Source of the DNA: a virus
DNA: 12,882 nucleotides
Virus genome (UHGV): UHGV-0331123
Strand: one strand, 5' to 3'
The position numbers and the translations under genes were made by a program. Under the pieces are notes generated by a model. The model did no database searches and had not been told where the DNA came from. It saw only the letters and a list, made by a program, of their open reading frames with translations. Below, one piece after another: positions 1 to 12,882 of the stretch (within the stretch, counting starts at the first letter, position 1; every line of letters starts with the position of its first letter).

Positions 1-378
1 CGCGAAGTGGTGAAACACTCCAGAAGCGGGGAATCTGTTATCAAGGAAGAGTGGGTGAAGGAACTGTGTCAGCATTGTCATGGTAAGGGAGAAGTCAGCA
101 CAGCGTGCAGAGGGTGTAAGGGTAAAGGTATTGTCCTGGATGAAAAAAGAACCCGGCTTCATGGCACGCCTGTTTATAAGGTTTGTGGGCGTTGCAATGG
201 AAACCGGTTTAGCCGTTTACCAACCACACTGGCGCGGCTTCATGTCCAGAAGCTGGTACCAGACCTGACGGATTATCAGTGGTACAAAGGATATGCAGAT
301 GTCATTGATAAACTGGTTACAAAGTGCTGGCAGGAAGAAGCATATGCAGAGATACAATTGAGAAAGGTGACAAGATAA
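1..378 (+). CDS. Late-gene antiterminator Q-like protein, 5'-partial (frame is open to the window edge); carries three CxxCxGxG zinc-finger repeats
   Basis: ORF open from position 1, stop at 376-378. Motifs CQHCHGKGE, CRGCKGKGI and CGRCNGNRF resemble DnaJ-type Cys-rich repeats. Sits immediately upstream of a promoter-like region, a terminator and the lysis cassette, which is the Q position in lambdoid phages. Assignment is positional plus motif, not a recognised sequence match. Confidence 0.45.
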   Translation, partial: REVVKHSRSGESVIKEEWVKELCQHCHGKGEVSTACRGCKGKGIVLDEKRTRLHGTPVYKVCGRCNGNRFSRLPTTLARLHVQKLVPDLTDYQWYKGYADVIDKLVTKCWQEEAYAEIQLRKVTR

Positions 379-409
379 ATGGTTTTCGCCGAAGATGACG
401 ACATGATGC

Positions 410-445
410 TTGCGTTTTTCAAAAAATATGGATAAGATTTTCACA
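410..445 (+). promoter_or_regulatory. Candidate late promoter (pR'-like) downstream of Q
   Basis: TTGCGT at 410-415, 17-bp spacer, TAAGAT at 433-438; lies between the Q stop and the hairpin terminator at 487-509, the lambda pR'/qut/tR' arrangement. The -10 element is weak. Confidence 0.2.
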
Positions 446-486
446 ACGATGGGCTTTGTATGTCTACCGTTGATAAGATTTAAGAA

Positions 487-509
487 CCCGCCACTGAGCG
501 GGTTTTTTT
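487..509 (+). terminator. Rho-independent terminator (tR'-like)
   Basis: Stem CCCGC (487-491) / GCGGG (498-502), 6-nt loop, then seven T (503-509). Confidence 0.6.
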
Positions 510-631
510 GTACCTGTAAACTTGGTGCAGTACAGTAAACACGCTGGTGGTCGTGAATACTGACTTTTTATCTTGCTGGCTTTTTAGACAAGAGTTACTG
601 GTATGTCATGTTAACCAGAAGGGAAAAAGAC

Positions 632-835
632 ATGCTAAAACAGCAAGATATGACAGAAACCGCCGCCGCAGTCCTTCATTTCTTACCTGCTGACAAGTGG
701 GTAACGCCACGCATGATGACGAGAACTACCGGAGTAAGCGAAGCCCGGTGCCAGTTAATACTGACTCAGTTAGTTCTGGCGGGGCTGGCGAAGGATAACG
801 GCGGGTACGGGAATAAATTCAGACGCTGCCAGTAA
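632..835 (+). CDS. Small (67 aa) hypothetical protein, possible winged-helix DNA-binding protein (FaeA/PapI-like architecture)
   Basis: ATG at 632 preceded by AAGGGA; the track start at 608 has no Shine-Dalgarno. The segment VTPRMMTRTTGVSEARCQLILTQLVLAGL looks like a helix-turn-helix with recognition helix; resemblance to PapI/FaeA is from memory of family architecture only. Confidence 0.45.
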   Translation: MLKQQDMTETAAAVLHFLPADKWVTPRMMTRTTGVSEARCQLILTQLVLAGLAKDNGGYGNKFRRCQ

Positions 836-985
836 TGGCGGTTTCCTGCTGTGAAAATGGGCGGCTGGTGGGTGTTGGTAGCACCTGCCAGCCATTCGCT
901 CATGCTTACTGGTCACAAGCGAACCACGGCCCACTGCTTTAGCGCAAAAGCAGAGTGAGCCTACCAGAGTTACGCTTACTGATCC

Positions 986-2038
986 ATGAAAAATACTGTA
1001 AAAATAAACAGTGTTGATTTAATCAACGCTGATTGCCTGCATTTTATTCAGTCCCTGCCTGATGATTCCATTGACCTGATTGTTACCGATCCGCCGTACT
1101 TCAAGGTGAAACCCAACGGCTGGGACAATCAGTGGAAAGGGGACGAAGATTACCTTAAGTGGCTGGACCACTGTCTGGCCCAGTTCTGGCGGGTGTTAAA
1201 GCCTGCCGGAAGCCTTTACCTGTTCTGTGGGCATCGCCTGGCATCTGATATTGAGATCATGATGCGTGAACGTTTCAACGTGCTTAACCATATCATCTGG
1301 GCGAAGCCGTCCGGACGTTGGAATGGGTGTAATAAAGAAAGTCTGCGCGCATATTTTCCTGCCACAGAGCGCGTTCTGTTTGCTGAACATTACCAGGGGC
1401 CATATCGCGGCAAAAGTGACGGCTATGCGGCAAAAGAAAGGGAACTCAAACAGCACATAATGGCACCGCTGATATCGTATTTCAGGGATGCTCGTGCCGA
1501 ACTGGGTATAACGGCAAAACAAATTGCCGAAGCCACAGGTAAGAAAAATATGGTTTCCCACTGGTTTGGTGCCAGTCAGTGGCAGTTGCCGAATGAGGCT
1601 GACTATCGGAAGTTACAGGCACTGTTTTCCCGTATAGCGGCAGAGAAGTTTCAGGAACAACAACTGGAACAACCACACCACCAGCTGGTGGCATCTTATG
1701 ATTCACTGAATCGCAAATATTCTGAATTGCTGGATGAGTTTAAATCTCTCCGGCGCTATTTCTCCGTATCAGTCTCCGTGCCTTATACCGATGTCTGGAT
1801 GCATAAACCCGTTCAGTTCTACCCGGGTAAACATCCGTGTGAGAAACCTGCGGATATGCTCCGGCAAATAATCAATGCCAGTAGTCGACCTGGTGATCTG
1901 GTTGCTGATTTTTTTATGGGATCCGGTTCCACAATAAAAGCAGCAATGGCGCTGGGGCGTCGGGCCTTAGGTGTTGAGCTTGAGTCAGAGCGGTTTAACC
2001 AGACAGTGAAAGAGATAAACGAGCTGGTGGGGAAATAA
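986..2038 (+). CDS. DNA N6-adenine methyltransferase, beta class (N6_N4_Mtase family), phage-borne orphan
   Basis: 350 aa. Motif IV DPPY near the N-terminus (LIVTDPPYF) and motif I FxGxG near the C-terminus (DFFMGSGST); order IV then I defines the beta class. DPPY rather than SPPY favours N6-adenine. No cognate restriction gene is adjacent. Confidence 0.85.
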   Translation: MKNTVKINSVDLINADCLHFIQSLPDDSIDLIVTDPPYFKVKPNGWDNQWKGDEDYLKWLDHCLAQFWRVLKPAGSLYLFCGHRLASDIEIMMRERFNVLNHIIWAKPSGRWNGCNKESLRAYFPATERVLFAEHYQGPYRGKSDGYAAKERELKQHIMAPLISYFRDARAELGITAKQIAEATGKKNMVSHWFGASQWQLPNEADYRKLQALFSRIAAEKFQEQQLEQPHHQLVASYDSLNRKYSELLDEFKSLRRYFSVSVSVPYTDVWMHKPVQFYPGKHPCEKPADMLRQIINASSRPGDLVADFFMGSGSTIKAAMALGRRALGVELESERFNQTVKEINELVGK

Positions 2039-2044
2039 TCTGGT

Positions 2045-2066
2045 GGCCACGTAGGTGGCCTTTTTA
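2045..2066 (+). terminator. Rho-independent terminator between methyltransferase and holin
   Basis: Stem GGCCAC (2045-2050) / GTGGCC (2055-2060), loop GTAG, then TTTTTATTT. Confidence 0.5.
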
Positions 2067-2104
2067 TTTCCATTACACAGCACCCGCATCTGCGAGGTGG
2101 GGTT

Positions 2105-2320
2105 ATGAAATCCATGGATAAGTTAACAACGGGTGTCGCCTATGGCACCTCAGCAGGTAGTGCCGGGTACTGGTTTTTACAGTTGCTCGATAAAGTCACG
2201 CCCTCACAGTGGGCGGCAATAGGTGTGCTGGGTAGTCTGGTATTTGGCTTGCTGACGTATCTGACAAACCTTTATTTCAAGATTAAAGAAGACAAGCGTA
2301 AGGCTGCACGGGGAGAGTAA
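2105..2320 (+). CDS. Pinholin, phage 21 S-type, with dual-start motif (antiholin from Met1, holin from Met4)
   Basis: 71 aa beginning MKSMDK (ATG at 2105 and 2114). Closely matches my memory of phage 21 S21 ([45 protein letters not shown]). Two predicted TM helices; followed by a SAR endolysin, the expected partner. Confidence 0.9.
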
Positions 2321-2324
2321 TTCA

Positions 2325-2669
2325 ATGACTCAAAAATATGAACTGATTGTGAAAGGGATCCGCAATTTTGAGAATAAAGTTACGGTAACTTTAGCGTTAC
2401 GGGACAAAGAACGCTTTGACGGTGAAATTTTTGACCTGGACATCTCGCTGGACCGTGTTGAAGGTGCCGCGCTGGAGTTTTATGAGGCAGCAGCCAGAAG
2501 GAGCATCAGACAGGTCTTCCTGGATGTTGCTGCCGGGTTATGTGAAGGGGATGAGCTGTCGCCGGAAAAGCGCCCCATAATTTTAGAGGCGCAGAATGTG
2601 TGGATAACCTACAAAGGAAAGCTACCGGGAAGAATTACTGGTTCTCTGAAGACTCCGCCGAAATGGTAA
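2325..2669 (+). CDS. Hypothetical protein (114 aa) inserted between holin and endolysin
   Basis: ATG at 2325 with GGAG 9 nt upstream, 4 bp after the holin stop; no motif I recognise. The 3' end overlaps a convergent minus-strand ORF by about 35 bp. Confidence 0.55.
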   Translation: MTQKYELIVKGIRNFENKVTVTLALRDKERFDGEIFDLDISLDRVEGAALEFYEAAARRSIRQVFLDVAAGLCEGDELSPEKRPIILEAQNVWITYKGKLPGRITGSLKTPPKW

Positions 2670-2907
2670 TTTCACCAGCATATTTTTCTTCCAGTAATAC
2701 CGCCAGCCACTTGAAAGAATTTTGTTGTTGCTGGGACCATTTGGGGTTGAGTGATTCAAGCTGGAGCGATGCCAGTGTTGGTTGCATTTGTTCCTTGGGA
2801 ATTGAGAATGCCAGATATGAAAATGCGACAGTAAGGGCATTTACATCATCCCGAAGCTTGGAAATGCAGTCGAGCAACTCCTGTAGAGAAATGGTGCTAT
2901 TGTCCAT
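2635..2907 (-). CDS. Hypothetical protein (90 aa), convergent to the lysis genes
   Basis: ATG at 2907 on the minus strand with GAGAGG 7 nt upstream; the track start at 2913 is a TTG. Balanced, helical-looking composition and lower GC than its surroundings. Confidence 0.5.
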   Translation of the reverse strand: MDNSTISLQELLDCISKLRDDVNALTVAFSYLAFSIPKEQMQPTLASLQLESLNPKWSQQQQNSFKWLAVLLEEKYAGEITISAESSENQ

Positions 2908-3012
2908 AAACAATCCTCTCTATTGTATTTAACTATTCCTTGCCTGATTCAACAGGCCGGGACAGATAAACATATCCAGGGTTCAGAAACCGATAAATCC
3001 TGATAAATATCC

Positions 3013-3555
3013 ATGAACGTAAAAATCAGATACGGCCTGTCGGCTGCCGTTCTGGCACTGATTGCCGTCGGTGCGCCTGCGCCTGATATTCTCGACCAGT
3101 TTCTGAATGAAAAAGAAGGTAACCACACAACGGCATACCGCGATGGTTCCGGCATCTGGACCATCTGTCGGGGTGCCACGGTGGTGGATGGAAAACCCGT
3201 TTTTCCCGGTATGAAACTGTCGAAGGAAAAATGCGACCAGGTTAACGCCATTGAACGGGATAAGGCGCTGGCATGGGTGGAGCGCAATATTAAAGTGCCA
3301 CTGACCGAACCACAGAAAGCGGGTATAGCGTCATTTTGTCCCTATAACATTGGCCCCGGTAAGTGTTTCCCGTCGACGTTTTATAAGCGGCTGAATGCCG
3401 ATGATCGTAAGGGGGCATGCGAGGCGATTCGCTGGTGGATAAAAGATGGTGGGCGTGATTGCCGCCTGACAAAAGGGCAGAAGAATGGCTGTTATGGGCA
3501 GGTCGAGCGGCGCGATCAGGAAAGCGCACTGGCGTGCTGGGGGCTGGAGCAATGA
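3013..3555 (+). CDS. SAR (signal-anchor-release) endolysin, T4-lysozyme-like glycoside hydrolase, phage 21 R-type
   Basis: Gly/Ala-rich weakly hydrophobic N-terminal segment (GLSAAVLALIAVGAPAP) typical of a SAR domain. Catalytic triad at exactly E35, D44, T50 (EGNHTTAYRDGSGIWT), the spacing of R21 and T4 lysozyme. Stop overlaps the Rz start (ATGA). Confidence 0.9.
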   Translation: MNVKIRYGLSAAVLALIAVGAPAPDILDQFLNEKEGNHTTAYRDGSGIWTICRGATVVDGKPVFPGMKLSKEKCDQVNAIERDKALAWVERNIKVPLTEPQKAGIASFCPYNIGPGKCFPSTFYKRLNADDRKGACEAIRWWIKDGGRDCRLTKGQKNGCYGQVERRDQESALACWGLEQ

Positions 3556-4088
3556 AAATTAATCCGGATCTTATAGGCGTTGTCGTTATTGCTGGCCTTT
3601 CGGTCGCTCTCGTCAAGAGTTGCTCTCACGCCAGTAATCTTCAGAGCGATAACGACGTTCTGCGAAGTGACAACTCTATGCTGGGGCAGGTAATCGCCAC
3701 CCAGGCATTCAACTTCAATCGATTCAATCAGGTTGCAGAACATGCCAACAGTCTTAACTCCCTGATCGACACCAGCACCGAAAAAACCGTAATCGAATAC
3801 CGGGAGATTCTCCGCCGTGAAAAAACCTGTGATCTGCCTGTTCCTGCTGATATCGCTGGTGGGTTGCTCGAATACACGTACCGTTTACGTGCCAGCGCCA
3901 TGCACACCGATACCGGCAGACCTAATGAAGCCTATGATCGTACCGCTACCACCAGCTCAATGACCTACTGCCAAGCTGTCTTGTGGATTAAGCCGCTACT
4001 GGCGTTGATAGAAAAAGGAAATAATAATTTTTCGAGTATTCGTGAAATTGATGAGTTGCGTTACAGACCATCTGAGCATGGCCAGTAA
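3552..4088 (+). CDS. Rz-like inner-membrane spanin (i-spanin)
   Basis: ATG at 3552 overlaps the endolysin stop; N-terminal TM helix (LIGVVVIAGLSVALV) then a periplasmic helical domain; contains an embedded +1-frame lipoprotein ORF. The C-terminal roughly 30 codons lie in AT-rich DNA. Confidence 0.8.
   Translation: MKINPDLIGVVVIAGLSVALVKSCSHASNLQSDNDVLRSDNSMLGQVIATQAFNFNRFNQVAEHANSLNSLIDTSTEKTVIEYREILRREKTCDLPVPADIAGGLLEYTYRLRASAMHTDTGRPNEAYDRTATTSSMTYCQAVLWIKPLLALIEKGNNNFSSIREIDELRYRPSEHGQ
3817..3963 (+). CDS. Rz1-like outer-membrane lipoprotein spanin (o-spanin), embedded in the +1 frame of Rz
   Basis: Translation by hand: (GTG)KKPVICLFLLISLVGCSNTRTVYVPAPCTPIPADLMKPMIVPLPPAQ. Signal peptide with lipobox LVGC and a Pro-rich mature part, as in lambda Rz1. 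Start is GTG with GGGAGA upstream. Too short for the ORF track. Confidence 0.65.
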   Translation: MKKPVICLFLLISLVGCSNTRTVYVPAPCTPIPADLMKPMIVPLPPAQ

Positions 4089-4165
4089 GGTTGCAGGAAA
4101 TTTAAAATCTGGCGATGAAATTTAATATTAGAAATTCATTGCCTAGTGAGATTAATAATGGGCAT

Positions 4166-4203
4166 CCCTTTGTGACGATAAGCTTTAACACATTCACAAA
4201 GGG
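4166..4203. terminator. 10-bp perfect hairpin between the Rz stop and the 3' end of the minus-strand moron; possible bidirectional terminator
   Basis: CCCTTTGTGA (4166-4175) and TCACAAAGGG (4194-4203) flank an 18-nt loop and are followed by ATATTTAATAT on the + strand. No clean U-tract on either side, so terminator function is uncertain. Confidence 0.35.
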
Positions 4204-4256
4204 ATATTTAATATAGGGTGGTTAATTCCCACTTGCTGTGGTGTTTAGGGGGTAAT

Positions 4257-4949
4257 TCAAATCTTATCTAACTCATTATAGGCTTCGATAATAAAAATTC
4301 TGATTTTAATAAGGCATGATTCAATGAAAGGAATTACTTCATGGTCATTCCCATGGAATCTTATTTTTTTCTCTTCGGTAATGACTATGTTTAAAGGTAC
4401 ACCATTACCACTTCTTTGTAATTTCCCATTTTCGAAAGTAAAGTCTTCTAATTTTTTGCCATTGATGTGGTTGTTTTTAAAGAGAATTTTTGCTGAGCTT
4501 CCTGCTGTGATTAAACCAAAACCATCTACGCTCACACTTAGGTCTTTAACAGAACTCTCTTCTCTTAAGGGGATTGGTTGTCTGTGCTTTACTTCATTAG
4601 TGAGATTACACATCATTTCCAACCAAGATTCGCCAGTGTGATAATCCTGTATAGAAGTAAAAATTTTATATAATGGAGAAGATGATGGTGGGTTTATTTT
4701 TAGCGTCTTTGAGAAAAATTTATCAATAAACTCTCTTTTTCCGTAAGGGAAATATATTTTGGGGCGCTCATCATTACTGCGTGGAGAAATATATTTATCA
4801 TAGGTATCATTAGCGAGATACTCTAAGGAACTTCGTAAGTTTTCCAAAATAGCTTTGACTTTTACAGGCTTGATATGCTGTGTCTGTCTCATTATGTCAA
4901 GACTTTCTTCAACTTCTTGCAATAAGTCCAACGAGCCTTCTCTAGACAT
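4257..4949 (-). CDS. Hypothetical 230-aa protein on an AT-rich moron at the lambda bor position; candidate lysogenic-conversion or anti-phage gene
   Basis: Minus-strand ORF with strong Shine-Dalgarno (AAGGAG about 10 nt upstream of ATG at 4949). GC is visibly much lower than the flanking phage genes and it runs opposite to the late operon, with AT-rich promoter-like DNA upstream (4950-5100). No catalytic motif I can name. Confidence 0.7.
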   Translation of the reverse strand: MSREGSLDLLQEVEESLDIMRQTQHIKPVKVKAILENLRSSLEYLANDTYDKYISPRSNDERPKIYFPYGKREFIDKFFSKTLKINPPSSSPLYKIFTSIQDYHTGESWLEMMCNLTNEVKHRQPIPLREESSVKDLSVSVDGFGLITAGSSAKILFKNNHINGKKLEDFTFENGKLQRSGNGVPLNIVITEEKKIRFHGNDHEVIPFIESCLIKIRIFIIEAYNELDKI

Positions 4950-5299
4950 ACAGGTAATTCTCCTTTATGAATTTTCAACATGTTATAACTAATAATATAT
5001 TTATCATATAACTGTATGAATAAATTGTGAGATTAGTAATGCAAGTTTCTATCCATAGTGTTCTCTAAGTACCCGCTTCCATCATGTTGTTACGGACGGT
5101 ATGGCTAAAACAAAGCACCTGAAGTTAAACGTTCTGAACTTTATGCTCGTTGAGCATATGAATTATCTGTAACCCGATGCGCTGGTTGTGGTTCACATTG
5201 ATGGTCGTAATCAGCAGCGGTGGTGCCTGATGGCATGCAACTTCTTACTTATAAAACTTCGTATGGAATTGTTGCCATAACGAGCCCAGCTTAGCAGTT

Positions 5300-5400
5300 T
5301 TTAATGGGTCCTCCCGGCAGTGTGTCCTGCCACGGGGCGGGAGCGTCGCGGAAAAAGGCTAGTTTTTGAAATTTCATTCGTCATCACCACTACTGTAATG
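5300..5400. other. cos site (cosQ-cosN-cosB region), lambda-like
   Basis: GGGTCCTCCCGG...CACG|GGGCGGGAGCGT|CGCGG closely parallels remembered lambda cos (…GGGTCCTTTCCGG…TTACG|GGGCGGCGACCT|CGCGGG…). By analogy the 12-nt cohesive end is 5335-5346. The distance to the terS start (about 175 bp) is similar to lambda's, and a TTCGTCAT motif lies downstream as in lambda. Confidence 0.7.
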
Positions 5401-5520
5401 TATTGATATTACGGTTATTTTATTTTTATGGTGTCGATTTTGATTGTTTTTTGTTCACCACTAACACCGTTTGCCTAAAGTTGTTCGCAAGATGCATGTT
5501 TAAAACATTCTGGAGCGGGT

Positions 5521-6015
5521 ATGGATCGAGAGTTAAAAAATCTGACGCTGAATATCAGTCAACTGGCGGCACTGTCAGGTGTACATCGCCAGACTGCTGC
5601 GGCAAGGCTGCAAAATCTACCCGTTGCAGGGGGGCATGAAAGCAACCTCAAGCTTTATCGGGTGGTTGATATTGTGTCGGCATTTCTGGCATTGCCACCG
5701 CCGGTTGCAGAAGGCGAAATGGACGCGCATGAGCGCAAAGCCTGGTATCAGTCTGAACGTGAGCGTCTTAAGTTCGAACAGGAAACGGCACAACTCATTC
5801 CGGCCAGTGATGTCAGACGGGAGTTTGCCATCTGGGCAAAAGCGGTCGTGCAGGTGCTGGAGACATTACCGGATATTCTTGAACGTGACTGCGGTCTGCA
5901 GCCTGCCGCTGTGAGCCGTGTTCAGTCCATTATTGATGATCTGCGCGATCAGATAGCCCTGCGGGTGACTGAAGCAGGTGCGGATGATGAGGAGGAATTA
6001 CAGCAGGAGGAGTAA
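5521..6015 (+). CDS. Terminase small subunit (Nu1-like, N-terminal HTH)
   Basis: GGAG 6 nt upstream of ATG 5521; helix-turn-helix LNISQLAALSGVHRQTAAARL; acidic C-terminus; stop overlaps the terL start (TAATG); directly downstream of cos. Confidence 0.8.
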   Translation: MDRELKNLTLNISQLAALSGVHRQTAAARLQNLPVAGGHESNLKLYRVVDIVSAFLALPPPVAEGEMDAHERKAWYQSERERLKFEQETAQLIPASDVRREFAIWAKAVVQVLETLPDILERDCGLQPAAVSRVQSIIDDLRDQIALRVTEAGADDEEELQQEE

Positions 6016-8117
6016 TGCTGAATCAGGAAACCGCAAAGGCAGCACGAACCGATTCAGGTTATATCCTTCGCGCACCGAGACGAATGCGGGTTGCTGATGC
6101 CGTTGCTCAGTATATGCGGGTGCCCATGGGGGCAGGGAACTCAGTCCCGTGGGATCCGCTGGTGGCACCGTATGTTATTGAGCCGATGAACTGCCTGGCC
6201 TCGCGTGAATACGACGCAGTGATATTTGTTGGTCCGGCACGAACCGGCAAGACTATCGGCCTGATTGACGGCTGGGTGATTTACAACGTGATTTGCGATC
6301 CTGCGGATATGCTGATCATTCAGATGACGGAGGAAAAAGCCCGCGAACACTCCAAAAAACGACTTGCCAGAACGTTTCGCGTCAGCCCGGAAGTGGTCAG
6401 TCGCCTGAGTCCGAACAAAAATGACAACAACGTTTATGACAGAACATTCCTTGCTGGCAACTACCTGAAAATCGGCTGGCCGTCAGTCAATATCATGTCC
6501 TCATCAGATTATAAATGCGTGGCGCTGACGGATTATGACCGTTTTCCGGAAGATATTGATGGCGAGGGGGATGCCTTCTCTCTTGCCTCAAAACGTACCA
6601 CCACATTTATGTCCAGTGGTATGACGCTGGTGGAGAGTTCCCCCGGCAGGGATGTGAAGGATGTGAAATGGCGACGGACTTCACCGCATGAGGCTCCACC
6701 AACCACGGGGATACTGTCGCTCTATAACCGTGGCGATCGCCGTCGCTGGTACTGGCCCTGTCCACACTGTGGTGAGTATTTTCAGCCCTGCGGCGATGTG
6801 GTTGCTGGTTTCCGTGATATTGCCGATCCCGTGCTGGCAAGTGAGGCGGCTTATATTCAGTGTCCTTCCTGTTCAGGACGGATTATGCCTGAACAAAAAC
6901 GTGAGCTGAACGGACGTGGGGTCTGGTTGCGGGATGGTGAATCCATCAATGCGGATGGCAGTCGTTATGGTGATCCCCGACGCTCACGTATTGCGTCATT
7001 CTGGATGGAGGGTCCGGCAGCTGCTTACCAGACACTCTCGCAACTCGTTTACAAACTGCTTACTGCAGAACAGGAATACGAGACAACCGGAAGTGAAGAA
7101 ACACTCAAGACGGTTATCAATACCGACTGGGGATTACCTTATCTTCCCCGCGCCAGCATGGAGCAACGAAAAAGTGAACTGCTTGAGCAGCGGGCAGAGC
7201 CAGTTCCTTCCCACAGTGTGCCGGATGGCGTTAATTTCCTTGTGGCGACAGTGGATGTGCAGGCGGGACGTCATCGCCGTTTTGTGGTTCAGGTAACGGG
7301 CTATGGCAGCCGTGGCGAACGCTGGATTATTGATCGTTACAACATCACGCAGTCATTGCGCGGTGACAGCGACGGGGAGAGCCAGCGAATTGATCCGGCC
7401 AGCTATCCGGAAGACTGGGATGTCCTGCTGACGGATGTTTTTCATAAAAGCTGGCCGCTGGCCTCCGATCCTTCTCAACAAATGCGACTGATGGCAATGG
7501 CGGTGGACTCCGGCGGTGAAGACGGGGTCACTGATAATGCCTATAAATTCTGGCGTCGTTGCCGTCGTGATGGCCTTGGTAAACGTATTTACCTGTTTAA
7601 GGGCGACAGCATCCGGCGCGCAAAACTGATCACTCGTACATTCCCTGATAACACCGGACGAACGGGCCGACGGGCGCAGGCCGCAGGTGATGTGCCGCTC
7701 TGGCTTCTTCAGACGGATGCACTGAAAGACCGGGTGAATAACGCGTTATGGCGTGACTCGCCAGGTCCCGGCTATGTGCATTTCCCTGACTGGCTGGGGA
7801 GCTGGTTTTACGACGAACTGACGTATGAAGAGCGGAGCAGTGACGGGAAATGGAGTAAGCCTGGTCGCGGTGCCAACGAAGCTTTTGACCTGATGGTGTA
7901 TGCCGAGGCTCTGGTCATTCTGCATGGATACGAAAAGATCCGCTGGCCGGATGCACCGGAGTGGGCGAGCCGGGAAACCTGGCTGGAGTGTGTCCAGGAC
8001 AGTACCGAACCGTCATCCTCACCGGAACCGGTATCCACGCCTGTTAAAAAACAAAAACGGAAGAAAACAGTAACTGACGATGTTAACCCCTGGCTGACTT
8101 CCGGAGGATGGTTATGA
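6015..8117 (+). CDS. Terminase large subunit, lambda gpA family
   Basis: 700 aa; P-loop-like VGPARTGKT near the N-terminus; size and position match gpA; translationally coupled to terS and to the gpW-like gene. Contains a CPHC…CPSC Cys4 motif. Confidence 0.88.
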   Translation: MLNQETAKAARTDSGYILRAPRRMRVADAVAQYMRVPMGAGNSVPWDPLVAPYVIEPMNCLASREYDAVIFVGPARTGKTIGLIDGWVIYNVICDPADMLIIQMTEEKAREHSKKRLARTFRVSPEVVSRLSPNKNDNNVYDRTFLAGNYLKIGWPSVNIMSSSDYKCVALTDYDRFPEDIDGEGDAFSLASKRTTTFMSSGMTLVESSPGRDVKDVKWRRTSPHEAPPTTGILSLYNRGDRRRWYWPCPHCGEYFQPCGDVVAGFRDIADPVLASEAAYIQCPSCSGRIMPEQKRELNGRGVWLRDGESINADGSRYGDPRRSRIASFWMEGPAAAYQTLSQLVYKLLTAEQEYETTGSEETLKTVINTDWGLPYLPRASMEQRKSELLEQRAEPVPSHSVPDGVNFLVATVDVQAGRHRRFVVQVTGYGSRGERWIIDRYNITQSLRGDSDGESQRIDPASYPEDWDVLLTDVFHKSWPLASDPSQQMRLMAMAVDSGGEDGVTDNAYKFWRRCRRDGLGKRIYLFKGDSIRRAKLITRTFPDNTGRTGRRAQAAGDVPLWLLQTDALKDRVNNALWRDSPGPGYVHFPDWLGSWFYDELTYEERSSDGKWSKPGRGANEAFDLMVYAEALVILHGYEKIRWPDAPEWASRETWLECVQDSTEPSSSPEPVSTPVKKQKRKKTVTDDVNPWLTSGGWL

Positions 8118-8326
8118 ACCAGAATGATATCGAAGCCATGATTCAGCGTTATATGGAAGCTGAAATGGCGGTGCTGGACGGAAAATCCGTCACCTTTAAT
8201 GGTCAGCAGATGACCATGGAAAACTTATCTGAGATCCGGCAGGGACGGCAGGAGTGGGAGCGCCGCCTTGCGGCTCTGATTACACGACGACGGGGGCATC
8301 CCGGGTACCGGCTGGCGAGGTTCTGA
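8114..8326 (+). CDS. Head-tail joining / head completion protein, lambda gpW-like
   Basis: 70 aa from ATG 8114 (GGAGGA 5 nt upstream, ATGA overlap with the terL stop). C-terminal RRRGHPGY resembles lambda gpW RRRGPAGF; sits between terL and portal as in lambda. Confidence 0.7.
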   Translation: MNQNDIEAMIQRYMEAEMAVLDGKSVTFNGQQMTMENLSEIRQGRQEWERRLAALITRRRGHPGYRLARF

Positions 8327-9834
8327 TGGCAATTCTTGATGATGTGATTGGCGTTTTTTCACCTGGATGGAAAGCGGCAAGGCTGCGTTCCCGTGCGGTG
8401 ATCCAGGCTTATGAAGCCGTAAAAACGACGCGGACACACAAAGCCCGACGGGAGAACCGAACTGCCGACCAGCTAAGCCAGTACGGGGCCGTGTCGTTAC
8501 GTGAGCAGGCCCGTTACCTTGATAACAACCACGATCTGGTTATTGGTGTATTTGACAAGCTGGAAGAACGGGTGGTGGGGAAAAACGGGATTATTGTCGA
8601 GCCACATCCGGTATTACGCAATGGGGCCATTGCCCGTGACCTGGCTGCGGAGATTCGCACCCGATGGAGTGAATGGTCTGTCAGCCCGGAAGTCACCGGG
8701 CAGTTTACCCGTCCGATGCTGGAACGTCTGATGCTGCGTACCTGGCTGCGCGATGGTGAGGTGTTTGCCCAGATGGTTTCCGGGCGCATAAACAGCCTGA
8801 CGCCTTCTGCCGGTGTTCATTTCTGGCTGGAGGCGCTCGAGCCAGACTTTATTCCCATGACCAGTGATGAGAGCAACAGGCTGAATCAGGGCGTGTTTGT
8901 TGATGACTGGGGGCGTCCCGAAAAATATCTGGTGTATAAAAGCCGTCCCGTATCCGGACGGCAGATGGAAACCAAAGAAGTGGATGCAGAGCGAATGCTG
9001 CATCTTAAATTTGTTCGCCGTCTGCACCAGATGCGCGGGACGTCTTTGTTGTCCGGTGTGCTGATCCGCCTCAGTGCCCTGAAAGATTATGAAGATTATG
9101 AGCTGACTGCAGCAAGGATCGCCGCTGCTCTGGGGATGTACATCCGCAAAGGCGACGGGCAGAGCTATGAACCGGATGGTAATGGCAGCAAGGATAAGGA
9201 ACGCGAGCTTACCATTCAGCCAGGCATTATTTACGACGATCTGAAACCCGGCGAAGAAATCGGAATGGTGAAGTCGGATCGCCCCAATCCTAACCTTGAA
9301 ACTTTTCGTAATGGTCAGTTGCGTGCCGTGGCGGCGGGCAGTCGTCTGAGTTTTTCCAGTACAGCGCGCAACTATAACGGCACTTACAGCGCCCAGCGTC
9401 AGGAGCTGGTTGAATCTACTGATGGCTACCTGATCCTGCAGGACTGGTTTATTGGTGCCGTCACCCGCCCGATGTATCGTGCATGGCTGAAACAGGCTGT
9501 GGCATCCGGTGTTATCAGGCTACCCCGCGATCTTGACCGTTCTTCACTGTATACCGCGGTGTATTCCGGACCGGTGATGCCGTGGATTGACCCTGTTAAG
9601 GAGGCTGAGGCCTGGAAAATCCAGATTCGTGGTGGAGCGGCGACAGAATCAGACTGGGTACGTGCTGGTGGTCGTAATCCGGATGATGTCAAACGTCGGC
9701 GCAAGGCCGAAATTGATGAAAACCGCAAGCTGGATCTGGTATTTGATACCGATCCGGCCAGTGATAAAGGAGGCAGCAGTGCCGCAACGAAACGACAGGA
9801 GCCGCAGCACACCGACGACCAGTCCGAAGAATAA
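8326..9834 (+). CDS. Portal protein, lambda gpB-like
   Basis: 502 aa from ATG 8326 (TGATG overlap with the gpW-like stop; the track's upstream extension overlaps gpW in another frame). Size and gene order match gpB; acidic C-terminal tail. Confidence 0.85.
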   Translation: MAILDDVIGVFSPGWKAARLRSRAVIQAYEAVKTTRTHKARRENRTADQLSQYGAVSLREQARYLDNNHDLVIGVFDKLEERVVGKNGIIVEPHPVLRNGAIARDLAAEIRTRWSEWSVSPEVTGQFTRPMLERLMLRTWLRDGEVFAQMVSGRINSLTPSAGVHFWLEALEPDFIPMTSDESNRLNQGVFVDDWGRPEKYLVYKSRPVSGRQMETKEVDAERMLHLKFVRRLHQMRGTSLLSGVLIRLSALKDYEDYELTAARIAAALGMYIRKGDGQSYEPDGNGSKDKERELTIQPGIIYDDLKPGEEIGMVKSDRPNPNLETFRNGQLRAVAAGSRLSFSSTARNYNGTYSAQRQELVESTDGYLILQDWFIGAVTRPMYRAWLKQAVASGVIRLPRDLDRSSLYTAVYSGPVMPWIDPVKEAEAWKIQIRGGAATESDWVRAGGRNPDDVKRRRKAEIDENRKLDLVFDTDPASDKGGSSAATKRQEPQHTDDQSEE

Positions 9835-9847
9835 TTCCTGGTTCAGG

Positions 9848-11806
9848 ATGCAGGCTGGTCACCAGAGTGACGCGGATATTTATATTTATGACGAGATTGG
9901 TTTCTGGGGTGTTACAGCGAAGCAGTTTATCAGTGATCTGAATGCACTGGGCGATATCACCCACATTAATCTCCATATTAATTCACCGGGTGGCGATGTC
10001 TTTGAAGGCATCGCCATTTTTAATGCGCTGAAAACACATGGTGCGTCCATTACCGTTTATGTCGACGGTGTGGCGGCGTCAATGGCGTCGGTCATTGCGA
10101 TGGTGGGAAACCCGGTCATTATGCCGGAAAACACCTTCATGATGATTCATAAACCATTTGGCTTTACGGGCGGTGATGCGGAGGACATGCGCACCTATGC
10201 CGACCTGCTCGATAAGGTTGAGGCGGTTCTGTTACCCGCTTATGCACAGAAAACCGGGAAAACCACCGATGAAATTGCTGCCATGCTGGCGGATGAGACC
10301 TGGATGTCCGGTGCCGAATGTCTGGCACAGGGATTTGCTGATCAGGTGACGCCAGCCGTTAAGGCAATGGCATGTATTCAGTCAAAACGTACAGAGGAAT
10401 TTAAAAAGATGCCGGAATCCATTCGAAACATGATTACTCCGCCACGCAACAGTGCTCCACGCGTACAGGATGATGAACCTGCAGCCTCCCGGACGCCAGT
10501 GCAGGCAGCAGCACCCGTGGTGGATGAAAACAGCATCCGTGCGCAGGTCCTGGCAGAGCAAAAAGCGCGTGTAAACGGTATTAATGATCTGTTTGCCATG
10601 TTTGGCGGGCGTTATCAGGCGCTGCAGGCTCAGTGTCTTGCCGATCCTGAATGTTCGCTGGAGCAGGCCCGCGAAAAGCTGTTGAACGAGATGGGGCGCG
10701 AGTCCACGCCATCCAATAAAAATACCCCGGCTCATATTTATGCCGGTAACGGTAATTTTGTGGGGGACGGGATCCGCCAGGCGCTGATGGCGCGTGCCGG
10801 ATTTGAAAAAACCGAACGTGATAATGTCTACAACGGGATGACCCTGCGTGAATATGCCCGTATGTCACTGACTGAACGGGGTATTGGGGTTTCCAGTTAT
10901 AACCCGATGCAGATGGTCGGTGCGGCGTTCACACACAGTACGTCTGACTTCGGTAATATTCTGCTGGATGTTGCGAACAAAGCCATTCTGCAGGGCTGGG
11001 AAGATGCCCCTGAAACCTATGAACAGTGGACGCGGAAAGGTCAGTTGTCTGATTTTAAAATTGCCCATCGTGTGGGTATGGGGGGCTTCAGTGCTCTGCG
11101 TCAGGTGCGTGAAGGGGCGGAATATAAATACGTCACCACCGGAGATAAACAGGCCACTATTGCACTGGCGACCTATGGCGAGCTGTTCAGTATCACCCGT
11201 CAGGCCATTATCAATGATGATCTGAATATGCTGACCGATGTCCCGATGAAACTGGGCCGTGCGGCGAAATCCACTATTGCCGATCTGGTTTATGCCATTC
11301 TGACGTCTAACCCGAAAATCTCCACAGATAATGTAAGTCTGTTCGATAAAGCGAAACATGCAAACGTACTGGAGAGCGCTGCAATGGACGTGGCATCGCT
11401 GGATAAAGCCCGCCAGTTGATGCGCGTTCAGAAAGAGGGTGAGCGTCATCTGAATATTCGTCCTGCGTTCGTACTGGTACCGACGGCGATGGAGTCTGTT
11501 GCTAACCAGGTCATTCGCTCCTCAAGTGTCAAGGGGGCTGACATTAACGCCGGTATTATTAACCCGGTGAAAGATTTTGCGACCGTTATTGCAGAGCCTC
11601 GTCTTGATGATAACAGCCAGACCACCTTCTACCTGGCTGCGTCCAAAGGCTCCGATACGATTGAAGTGGCTTATCTCAACGGTGTGGATACGCCATATAT
11701 TGATCAGATGGAGGGCTTCAGTGTGGATGGCGTGACAACGAAAGTGCGTATTGACGCTGGTGTCGCGCCAGTTGATCACCGCGGTCTGGTGAAATGTACG
11801 GCGTAA
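9848..11806 (+). CDS. Tripartite capsid gene: ClpP-like (S14) prohead protease + scaffold-like linker + HK97-fold major capsid domain
   Basis: N-terminal region matches ClpP-family hallmarks (INSPGGDV, GVAASMASVIAM with the Ser nucleophile, MMIHKP with His). Middle region is Ala/Gln-rich and helical. C-terminal roughly 350 aa has capsid-like size and composition. Single-ORF protease-scaffold-capsid organisation is described for Salmonella phage Gifsy-2. Start taken as ATG 9848 because the upstream extension overlaps the portal gene. Confidence 0.8.
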   Translation: MQAGHQSDADIYIYDEIGFWGVTAKQFISDLNALGDITHINLHINSPGGDVFEGIAIFNALKTHGASITVYVDGVAASMASVIAMVGNPVIMPENTFMMIHKPFGFTGGDAEDMRTYADLLDKVEAVLLPAYAQKTGKTTDEIAAMLADETWMSGAECLAQGFADQVTPAVKAMACIQSKRTEEFKKMPESIRNMITPPRNSAPRVQDDEPAASRTPVQAAAPVVDENSIRAQVLAEQKARVNGINDLFAMFGGRYQALQAQCLADPECSLEQAREKLLNEMGRESTPSNKNTPAHIYAGNGNFVGDGIRQALMARAGFEKTERDNVYNGMTLREYARMSLTERGIGVSSYNPMQMVGAAFTHSTSDFGNILLDVANKAILQGWEDAPETYEQWTRKGQLSDFKIAHRVGMGGFSALRQVREGAEYKYVTTGDKQATIALATYGELFSITRQAIINDDLNMLTDVPMKLGRAAKSTIADLVYAILTSNPKISTDNVSLFDKAKHANVLESAAMDVASLDKARQLMRVQKEGERHLNIRPAFVLVPTAMESVANQVIRSSSVKGADINAGIINPVKDFATVIAEPRLDDNSQTTFYLAASKGSDTIEVAYLNGVDTPYIDQMEGFSVDGVTTKVRIDAGVAPVDHRGLVKCTA

Positions 11807-11830
11807 TCGTCGCAGATAACAACTCTGATG

Positions 11831-11849
11831 GCCCGTAAGGGCTTTTTTT
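11831..11849 (+). terminator. Compact rho-independent terminator after the capsid gene
   Basis: GCCC (11831-11834), GNRA-type loop GTAA, GGGC (11839-11842), then seven T. The 14-nt tail TTTTTTTGTACCTG is identical to that of the terminator at 487-509. Confidence 0.5.
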
Positions 11850-11889
11850 GTACCTGAAATCAGCCCCTGAACGGGGCTGTGCGGAGACA

Positions 11890-11925
11890 GTTATGGCAAA
11901 GAATTTTGTAGAAGAAGGAAAAACG
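11890..11925. repeat. Left copy of a perfect 36-bp inverted repeat (partner at 12336-12371)
   Basis: GTTATGGCAAAGAATTTTGTAGAAGAAGGAAAAACG covers the start codon and first 11 codons of the decoration gene; its exact reverse complement is at 12336-12371 (checked base by base). Confidence 0.95.
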
Positions 11926-12216
11926 GTGGCGATTGTTGCCAGTGCAGCCATCAGCAGCGGAGATCTGGTGCAGGTGGGTGATATTTTTGCGGTGGCGCTG
12001 ACCGATATTCAACAGGGTGAAACAGGCGACGGCATGACCGAAGGTGTGTTTATGCTGCCTAAGCTGAAAACGGATGACATGAAAACGGGTAAGAAGGTTT
12101 ATCTGAAGTCCGGAAAAGTTCAGCTGACTAACAGCGGCTCTGATCCGCTGGTCGGGGTTGTCTGGGCAGATGCCGGAACCAGTGCAGAAGAAGTGCCGGT
12201 AAAACTCAATGTCTGA
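11893..12216 (+). CDS. Head decoration / DUF2190-family protein
   Basis: 107 aa from ATG 11893 (GGAG 6 nt upstream). Starts MAKNFVEEGKT and contains SGDLVQVG…AVALTDI…GE…G…EGVF.LPK, as I remember DUF2190 proteins that follow major capsid genes. Confidence 0.75.
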   Translation: MAKNFVEEGKTVAIVASAAISSGDLVQVGDIFAVALTDIQQGETGDGMTEGVFMLPKLKTDDMKTGKKVYLKSGKVQLTNSGSDPLVGVVWADAGTSAEEVPVKLNV

Positions 12217-12370
12217 TCCCTTTTCCCGGCTGGCAGCGCGTATGGATGCGATCACGGTCAGAAAGATGGGAAAGACAGCCTCGATTAATGATGTCGATAT
12301 GACTGTGATCCCGGGAGAAACACTGGCAGAGCTGACGTTTTTCCTTCTTCTACAAAATTCTTTGCCATAA
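12209..12370 (+). pseudogene. Probable 5' fragment of the next head or head-tail gene, truncated at the inverted-repeat junction
   Basis: ATG 12209 overlaps the decoration stop (ATGTCTGA), typical late-operon coupling. Encodes MSDPFSRLAARMDAITVRKMGKTASINDVDMTVIPGETLAELT, then reads into the inverted-repeat copy and stops after 10 more codons. The frame is lost at 12336. Confidence 0.4.
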
Positions 12371-12371
12371 C
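12336..12371. repeat. Right copy of the perfect 36-bp inverted repeat; marks a sequence junction
   Basis: Exact reverse complement of 11890-11925. Upstream is phage-like (about 50% GC); immediately downstream the sequence is clearly GC-richer with strong GC3 codon bias. Confidence 0.95.
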
Positions 12372-12372
12372 A

Positions 12373-12882
12373 ATGCCCAAGAACTTCGTCCATGCCCGCA
12401 ATGCCAACGGCCGTGTCGCTATGGGGCTGCACGGCTACCGTATCGGTATCGGCGAATACGGGCATGTGGGACGGTTGGGTATGCCGCCCCCGTTTCTCGG
12501 CTGGACGCCACGCCACCAGTGGGGCTTCCATCTGCGGCGGGTCGGCGGCCAACTGTTCTATCCGGGACCGCCCATTGTCCCTGAACGGTGGGACGGACGC
12601 ATGAAGCCGGGCGAATTGCAGTCGGGCGGCTACGGCTTCTATTACAAATACAAGGCCGGACAACCGGTGCAACCGGCACAACAGGCCGACGTCCTGCAAA
12701 ACCTGCAGACGGTCATCACGCCGCTGGTCAGCCGTCCGCGCAGCACGGAACCGGCCCGTACCTACAAGGAACTGATAAGCTCTCCTGTCTATTTTTCCAA
12801 CGAGAAATGGCAGGAATGTCTTGCCTCCCACGGCCTTATCGTCGATAAGGAGGCACGGACACTGACCGTACAGTCCGAAAAG
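12373..12882 (+). CDS. High-GC ORF of unknown function, 3'-partial (open to the window end, 170 codons), compositionally foreign
   Basis: No stop from ATG 12373 to 12882; strong G/C third-position bias (ccc, aac, ttc, gtc, ggc…); protein-like composition (MPKNFVHARNANGRV…GYGFYYKYKAG…YFSNEKWQECLASHGLIVDKEARTLTVQSEK). No Shine-Dalgarno upstream; the ATG sits 1 nt after the inverted repeat, so the true start is uncertain. Absent from the ORF track because it has no stop. Confidence 0.5.
   Translation, partial: MPKNFVHARNANGRVAMGLHGYRIGIGEYGHVGRLGMPPPFLGWTPRHQWGFHLRRVGGQLFYPGPPIVPERWDGRMKPGELQSGGYGFYYKYKAGQPVQPAQQADVLQNLQTVITPLVSRPRSTEPARTYKELISSPVYFSNEKWQECLASHGLIVDKEARTLTVQSEK

Follow-up and report, generated by a model that had tools for sequence, protein, structure and literature searches.

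In FoSTeS/MMBIR, the hallmark is a short inverted insertion that was templated by nearby sequence and lies at a breakpoint joining unrelated DNA. These events typically use microhomology, and they are shown by independent recurrence or by clonal inheritance. Inverted orientation also characterizes the chimeras formed in MDA. In an analysis limited to chimeras mapping to two genomic segments, 85% were inverted, most joined segments less than 10 kb apart, intermolecular joins were rarer, and at least two bases of complementarity were found at about 77% of the junctions (Lasken & Stockwell 2007; PMC1855051). Artefacts of fragmentation, sonication or enzymatic, and the end repair that follows it produce library molecules with a short nearby stretch of the opposite strand (PMC10908179; bioRxiv 10.1101/2020.01.30.927491), and the end-repair models require natural inverted microhomology (PMC10908179).

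The viral DNA studied here, the whole stretch of 12,882 nucleotides that we call the window, ends in a joint that shares features with each of these systems. Three pieces follow one another: phage sequence in plus orientation up to position 12335, the reverse complement of phage positions 11925-11890, and foreign DNA entered at codon 88 of a gene. Our comparison of each piece with its natural relatives suggests that the right-hand 547 bases are probably an artefactual three-piece chimera at a contig end, made during library preparation or assembly.

Positions 1-12335 are an ordinary lambdoid E. coli prophage segment of the mEp460-like type, in plus orientation. Its nearest relative is E. coli strain 210221272 (NZ_CP016404), which is collinear at 99.7% except for an IS3 in that strain. 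The phages PhiR55_1, vB_EcoS-569R4, phi458 and mEp460 are collinear at 98-99%. The segment contains genes for the Q antiterminator and a methyltransferase, the lysis genes, a low-GC moron, the terminase, portal and protease/capsid fusion genes, a decoration gene and the start of a head-tail gene. With the whole window as the query, 5,213 of the 5,426 complete E. coli genomes match it somewhere, and a query with the local region matched 2,037 genomes. All of the E. coli and phage matches listed end at query position 12335. Coordinate 1 of the mEp460 and Ayreon genomes aligns at about position 5496. A cos site or genome end thus lies inside the window, which suggests that the DNA came from a prophage, a circle or a concatemer and not from the end of a virion.

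Several other features of the prophage part were noted. A low-GC island (4050-5250, 32-37% GC) separates the lysis genes from the small terminase gene and contains an ORF of 230 aa on the minus strand (4257..4949), which is annotated in E. coli as hypothetical protein WP_000085744.1 and has no match in Pfam or PADLOC. The island looks like a genuine moron with no assigned function. An ORF of 209 aa after the lysozyme gene (3459-4088) is intact and belongs to no Pfam family; its counterpart in NZ_CP016404 is broken by the IS3 (locus L001, 3240-5089). Downstream of the Q antiterminator gene, a DNA methyltransferase of 350 aa (986-2038) matches the Type II MTase models of PADLOC with E = 3e-152. 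It looks like an orphan methylase, as the window encodes no partner nuclease.

The phage genes next to the joint are a head decoration gene and a head-tail gene. The decoration or cement gene (11893..12216, plus strand) is intact, encodes 107 aa and matches the DUF2190/Phage_cement_2 model (PF09956, E = 7e-21), and its product is annotated in E. coli as a DUF2190 family protein. The head-tail or minor tail gene (phrog_153, Pfam Gifsy-2; plus strand) starts with the ATG at 12209 and is native to 12335, which amounts to 42 codons and 1 nt of a gene for 91 aa. The phrog_153 profile is covered from 1 to 43 of its 91 positions in this gene, versus 1 to 91 in the native E. coli copy. In the base-by-base alignment, the window is 100% identical to strain 210221272 through ...GGCAGAGCTGA, up to 12335, and the two are unrelated from 12336 on. 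The native phage sequence past ...GAGCTGA, where the window breaks, continues as ATGCTCTGTCC... and then into the tail genes. In the annotated relative, this gene, of 276 bp, is uninterrupted and is followed by U, the major tail protein gene, G/T, the tape measure protein gene, L, J and lom. These results bear out the sequence-only reading of this DNA, which had the gene cut after about 42 native codons. It had also proposed that related prophages be compared and had taken contiguous head-tail genes after 12336, with no inverted repeat, as a sign of an artefact or chimera; this is the arrangement that the related prophages have.

The piece that follows the break is an exact inverted copy of the start of the decoration gene. 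A repeat search of the window found two arms of 36 nt, at 11890-11925 and 12336-12371, that are 100% complementary and separated by 410 nt, as had been reported from the sequence. With up to three mismatches allowed, the 36-mer has two sites in the window, namely the two arms. None of 200 dinucleotide-preserving shuffles gave a 36-mer match, and the chance expectation is 0. The repeat does not extend beyond 36 nt on either flank, imperfect pairing included. The left arm (11890..11925, plus strand) is native, and many E. coli phages and plasmids have an identical 36-mer in this place. It had been described as the first 36 nt of the decoration gene. The location is right and the extent is not, as the arm is composed of 3 nt upstream of the gene and its first 11 codons. 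The right arm (12336..12371, minus orientation) is filler between two junctions, and its flanks are unlike both the phage and the foreign contexts.

Translation of the head-tail gene into the inverted copy gives a chimeric ORF of 53 aa (12209..12370, plus strand), with 42 native residues and 11 (TFFLLLQNSLP) read from the copy. Its TAA is located within the copy, 2 nt ahead of the foreign ATG at 12373. On the opposite strand, a frame of at least 340 codons (window 11860-12882) stays open from the decoration gene through the two junctions into the foreign fragment, and no recorded sequence matches it. This frame is an antisense shadow of the GC-rich coding frames, and a gene caller might call it.

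The third piece (12373..12882, plus strand) is an open frame of 170 codons, from the ATG at 12373 to the end of the window. Its nearest relative is in a 95.8-kb gut metagenome contig (ENA ERZ504587 NODE_6, 99.2% identity). Human faecal scaffolds labeled ‘Bacteriophage sp.’ match it at 98.2% (MT836995), 90% (MT835677) and, for others, 80, 76, 73 and 66%, and plasmids of Bacteroides finegoldii, Parabacteroides distasonis and Phocaeicola massiliensis match it at 73-78%. In all five relatives examined (78-99% identity) the match starts at exactly 12373. Together with the end of the phage matches at 12335, this confirms the abrupt junction and the foreign DNA that had been noticed from the letters. 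However, the ATG is not the gene start that the 170-codon ORF had been given. It is the internal Met88 of a conserved ORF of 522-524 aa, and the native residues upstream of it, ...TSIVGKDFY (DNA ...GGGAAAGACTTTTAT), are absent here. The piece is thus only part of a gene and is still open where the window ends; it consists of codons 88-257 of an uncharacterised gene for about 524 aa from a Bacteroidota conjugative element or plasmid, and not the foreign cargo gene that had been suggested. No promoter-like site was found ahead of it.

In the relatives, this gene is always located between a DUF4099 gene and a Toprim_2 gene (5870-7444 in locus L002, 5740-7308 in L004, 10001-11542 in L005). Genes nearby in the source element encode M23 peptidases, a bPH_2 protein, an ArdC-N/MPTase-PolyVal protein and a SusC-like TonB-dependent receptor. 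From this gene neighborhood and the plasmid matches, the source is assigned to a Bacteroidota conjugative element or plasmid. The gut data contain 283 homologues of the family of about 520 aa, and those that are named are from Bacteroides. The protein and profile searches that had been proposed for the 170-aa product thus led to a Bacteroidota element family, which no model in Pfam, PHROG, NCBIfam or PADLOC matches. Several of the nearest database copies of the gene are frameshifted or truncated. A sensitive blastn search of the 5,426 complete E. coli genomes gave no match to the foreign sequence.

The composition of the fragment stands out as described earlier, with 60.8% GC and 71.8% GC3 versus 48-55% GC and 50-57% GC3 in the phage genes. 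The donor is not the high-GC organism that had been deduced from it. The source elements have 48-52% GC overall, whereas the gene in MT836995 has 58% GC and 72% GC3. Since the donor elements are close to 50% GC and the gene is locally GC-rich, the jump in composition belongs to the gene and does not point to a donor of high GC. Between the fragment and MT836995 there are 9 nucleotide differences but only 2 in amino acids, which indicates a natural allele and is compatible with every scenario considered below.

The joint contains two junctions 37 nt apart, and comparison with the native continuations found 0 shared bases at each. Positions 12325-12335 have no complementarity to 11926-11936, and the first junction is not at a natural inverted repeat or palindrome. 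Between the inverted copy and the foreign ATG is an orphan base, A at 12372. The reverse complement of the phage would give T at this position, and T precedes the ATG in all five foreign relatives. No adapter or vector sequence is recognisable in 12336-12372, which is pure phage sequence plus this one base. The joint breaks the structure of both genes, as the head-tail gene stops being native in codon 43 of its 91 and the foreign gene is picked up at codon 88 of 524. Only 510 bases remain between the joint and the end of the window, and the mis-joined tail makes up the last 547 bases.

The second junction has one further peculiarity. Here the beginning of the decoration gene pairs with the point where the foreign DNA is entered, in the only quasi-palindrome of the joint, ACAAAATTCTTTGCCAT-AACA-ATGCCCAAGAACTTCGT, in which 13 of 17 nucleotides are complementary around a 4-nt loop. 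This is the basis of a resemblance that the sequence-only reading had pointed out, M-P-K-N-F-V in the foreign frame and M-A-K-N-F-V in the decoration protein. The resemblance is real at the nucleotide level but is not a homology of gene starts, as the motif is internal to the foreign protein. The foreign ORF was also considered as a diverged DUF2190 homologue, and this was rejected because there is no profile match and MPKNFV lies inside a protein of 524 aa. In 20,000 simulated random joins of phage and foreign DNA, 0.18% reached a pairing of 13/17 (p about 0.002), with a generous search space. The predicted hairpin (-3.6 kcal/mol, z = -0.09) is no more stable than shuffled sequence. No single priming or annealing model that gives the observed orientation from the quasi-palindrome could be built. 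It is either an unexplained coincidence at the level of about 0.2%, or it hints at an annealing-dependent step.

We searched for the joint elsewhere. Exact patterns across either junction had 0 matches in IMG/VR, the JGI metagenomes and the GTDB genomes (one per species), and in the phage and plasmid collections the 36-mer and the foreign sequence never occur in one record. Three ORFs that involve the joint (the chimeric one of 53 aa, the partial one of 170 aa and the minus-strand one of 340 aa) are absent from a collection of 15 billion proteins and from the gene-position index, and the exact 53-aa chimeric product is absent among the 15 billion proteins.

Compared to MDA chimeras, the first junction has the expected geometry, with the second segment inverted and from the same molecule, since the sequence passes from 12335 directly to 11925 on the other strand, at a distance of 410 nt. 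Unlike the majority of those chimeras, neither junction has complementary bases (0 at both, where at least 2 are usual), and the second carries the orphan A. In addition, there are three pieces here, with a middle piece of 36 nt and a jump to another genome. The ‘dual-strand’ or strand-split artefacts share with this joint the short nearby stretch of opposite strand, and an added A would be expected from A-tailing chemistry. However, these artefacts are found at natural inverted repeats or palindromes, of which there is none at 12335/11926, and by themselves they leave the attached Bacteroidota DNA unaccounted for. The likeness to FoSTeS/MMBIR is in the 36-nt inverted insertion, the nearby template and the unrelated DNA beyond it; the difference is that neither microhomology nor recurrence or clonal inheritance is seen. 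Like lambdoid morons, the fragment brings DNA of foreign composition into the late operon, and the island at 4050-5250 is a likely genuine example in the same window. Morons are complete genes with their own signals, located between intact phage genes, whereas here an essential gene is truncated and followed by a promoterless internal fragment. A moron or cargo gene was rejected for this locus on the grounds that the fragment lacks 87 N-terminal codons and disrupts an essential gene.

Consistent with a chimera, each piece has a distinct natural source and a sharp break, with the phage ending at 12335, the foreign DNA starting at 12373 and the phage’s own inverted 36-mer between them. The joint does not recur in independent genomes or samples, among the collections searched and the 5,426 E. 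coli genomes. It ignores gene structure and creates no functional unit. Its position, with 510 bases between the joint and the end of the contig, is as expected of a rare chimeric path. A cell could in principle have made the same joint. Replication of the prophage would have stalled in the head-tail gene of an E. coli cell that held Bacteroidales conjugative-element DNA, and serial template switching of the MMBIR/FoSTeS kind would have followed, first onto the opposite strand, where 36 nt were copied from a site 410 bp back, and next onto the foreign DNA, leaving a defective prophage with a captured fragment. The inverted insertion from nearby is what replicative template switching is generally known to leave, the sequence is clean on both sides of the joint, and the conjugation-associated genes of the foreign element (ArdC-N/MPTase-PolyVal, Toprim) make its entry into E. 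coli conceivable. The quasi-palindrome, improbable by chance, would also agree with a step that depends on annealing. We nevertheless consider capture in vivo unlikely. The foreign gene has left no trace in the complete E. coli genomes, neither junction was found in the other collections searched, and both lack the microhomology that MMBIR normally uses. An internal gene fragment would have no selective value and the phage would be non-viable, and the sequence stops soon after the joint, like a rare chimeric path. If the joint had formed in vivo, it would preserve physical evidence that DNA had passed between phyla in the gut and entered a prophage, by a replication-based and homology-independent route. 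It would then be a rare documented capture from Bacteroidota to Enterobacteriaceae by template switching, of moderate interest, yet in a dead prophage and with a gene fragment.

The length of the inverted piece, exactly 36 nt and thus that of an oligonucleotide element between unrelated sequences, also recalls an engineered construct or an in-silico splice. The piece begins 3 nt ahead of a start codon, the foreign part begins exactly at an ATG with a TAA 2 nt before it, and the window is absent from all collections searched. An engineered origin is nonetheless very improbable in our view, as vector, adapter, restriction-site, selectable-marker and scar sequences are all lacking. As an insert, the foreign part would be an implausible choice, since its ATG is internal to a gene with no annotated function, and no purpose of a design is evident. 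The fragment is moreover a natural allele, 99.2% identical to a gut contig. Two perfect inverted arms around a 410-nt segment could instead be functional, either as recombination sites of an invertible segment or as the terminal inverted repeat of a mobile element in the head-tail gene. This has next to no probability, as thousands of relatives have the left arm as the normal beginning of their decoration gene, all of them without the right arm, and the collinear region contains no invertase or transposase gene. The end of a transposon would not equal 36 nt of its target’s neighbor, and what follows the arm is internal coding sequence of a gene and not the end of an element. A Gin/Hin-type invertible segment was rejected because the relatives hold the left arm only and there is no recombinase gene in the collinear annotated region. 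Insertion of a transposable element was rejected because the ‘terminal repeat’ is the phage’s own sequence with a conserved coding interior beyond it.

The artefactual chimera is favored, and its formation can be proposed as follows. The three pieces would never have been contiguous in a living genome and would have been joined in one molecule or one assembly path. During amplification or library preparation, a strand switch of the polymerase or an end-repair event may have attached the nearby opposite-strand DNA. A non-templated A would then have been added, and the orphan A at 12372 may reflect such 3’ addition. A further switch or a blunt ligation may have linked the product to an unrelated molecule, Bacteroidota conjugative-element DNA from the same gut-type sample, which was entered in the middle of a gene. 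The assembler would finally have followed this rare chimera when it extended the contig at its end. A mis-join at the shared 36-mer in a de Bruijn graph was considered and rejected, as both flanks of the copy differ from the phage context. For the same reason, k-mers or reads spanning the junctions must have existed. DNA of different phyla from one gut sample is joined easily in the test tube but only with difficulty inside a cell. The fit is not complete, as two switches within 37 nt combined with a jump between genomes are a rare combination, and the lack of microhomology at both junctions is unlike the usual models. Of the options in the sequence-only reading, a chimera is thus the best supported, but it is not the simple fold-back that had been envisaged, as it has three pieces and two junctions. 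Overall, the observation made on the sequence was confirmed, its interpretation is partly supported, and the joint is most likely not a real genomic feature.

These results have implications for how such contigs are read. In this reading nothing in the joined tail functions; the joint has destroyed the head-tail gene, and the foreign fragment is promoterless and lacks its first 87 codons. As biology the joint is unimportant; it holds neither a cargo gene nor a new recombination site, and it does not point to a high-GC donor. Its value is in quality control. When the very end of a contig is DNA of another phylum, reached through a short and perfect inverted copy of sequence close by, it bears the recognisable signature of a chimeric molecule, and horizontal transfer into a phage should not be claimed from it.
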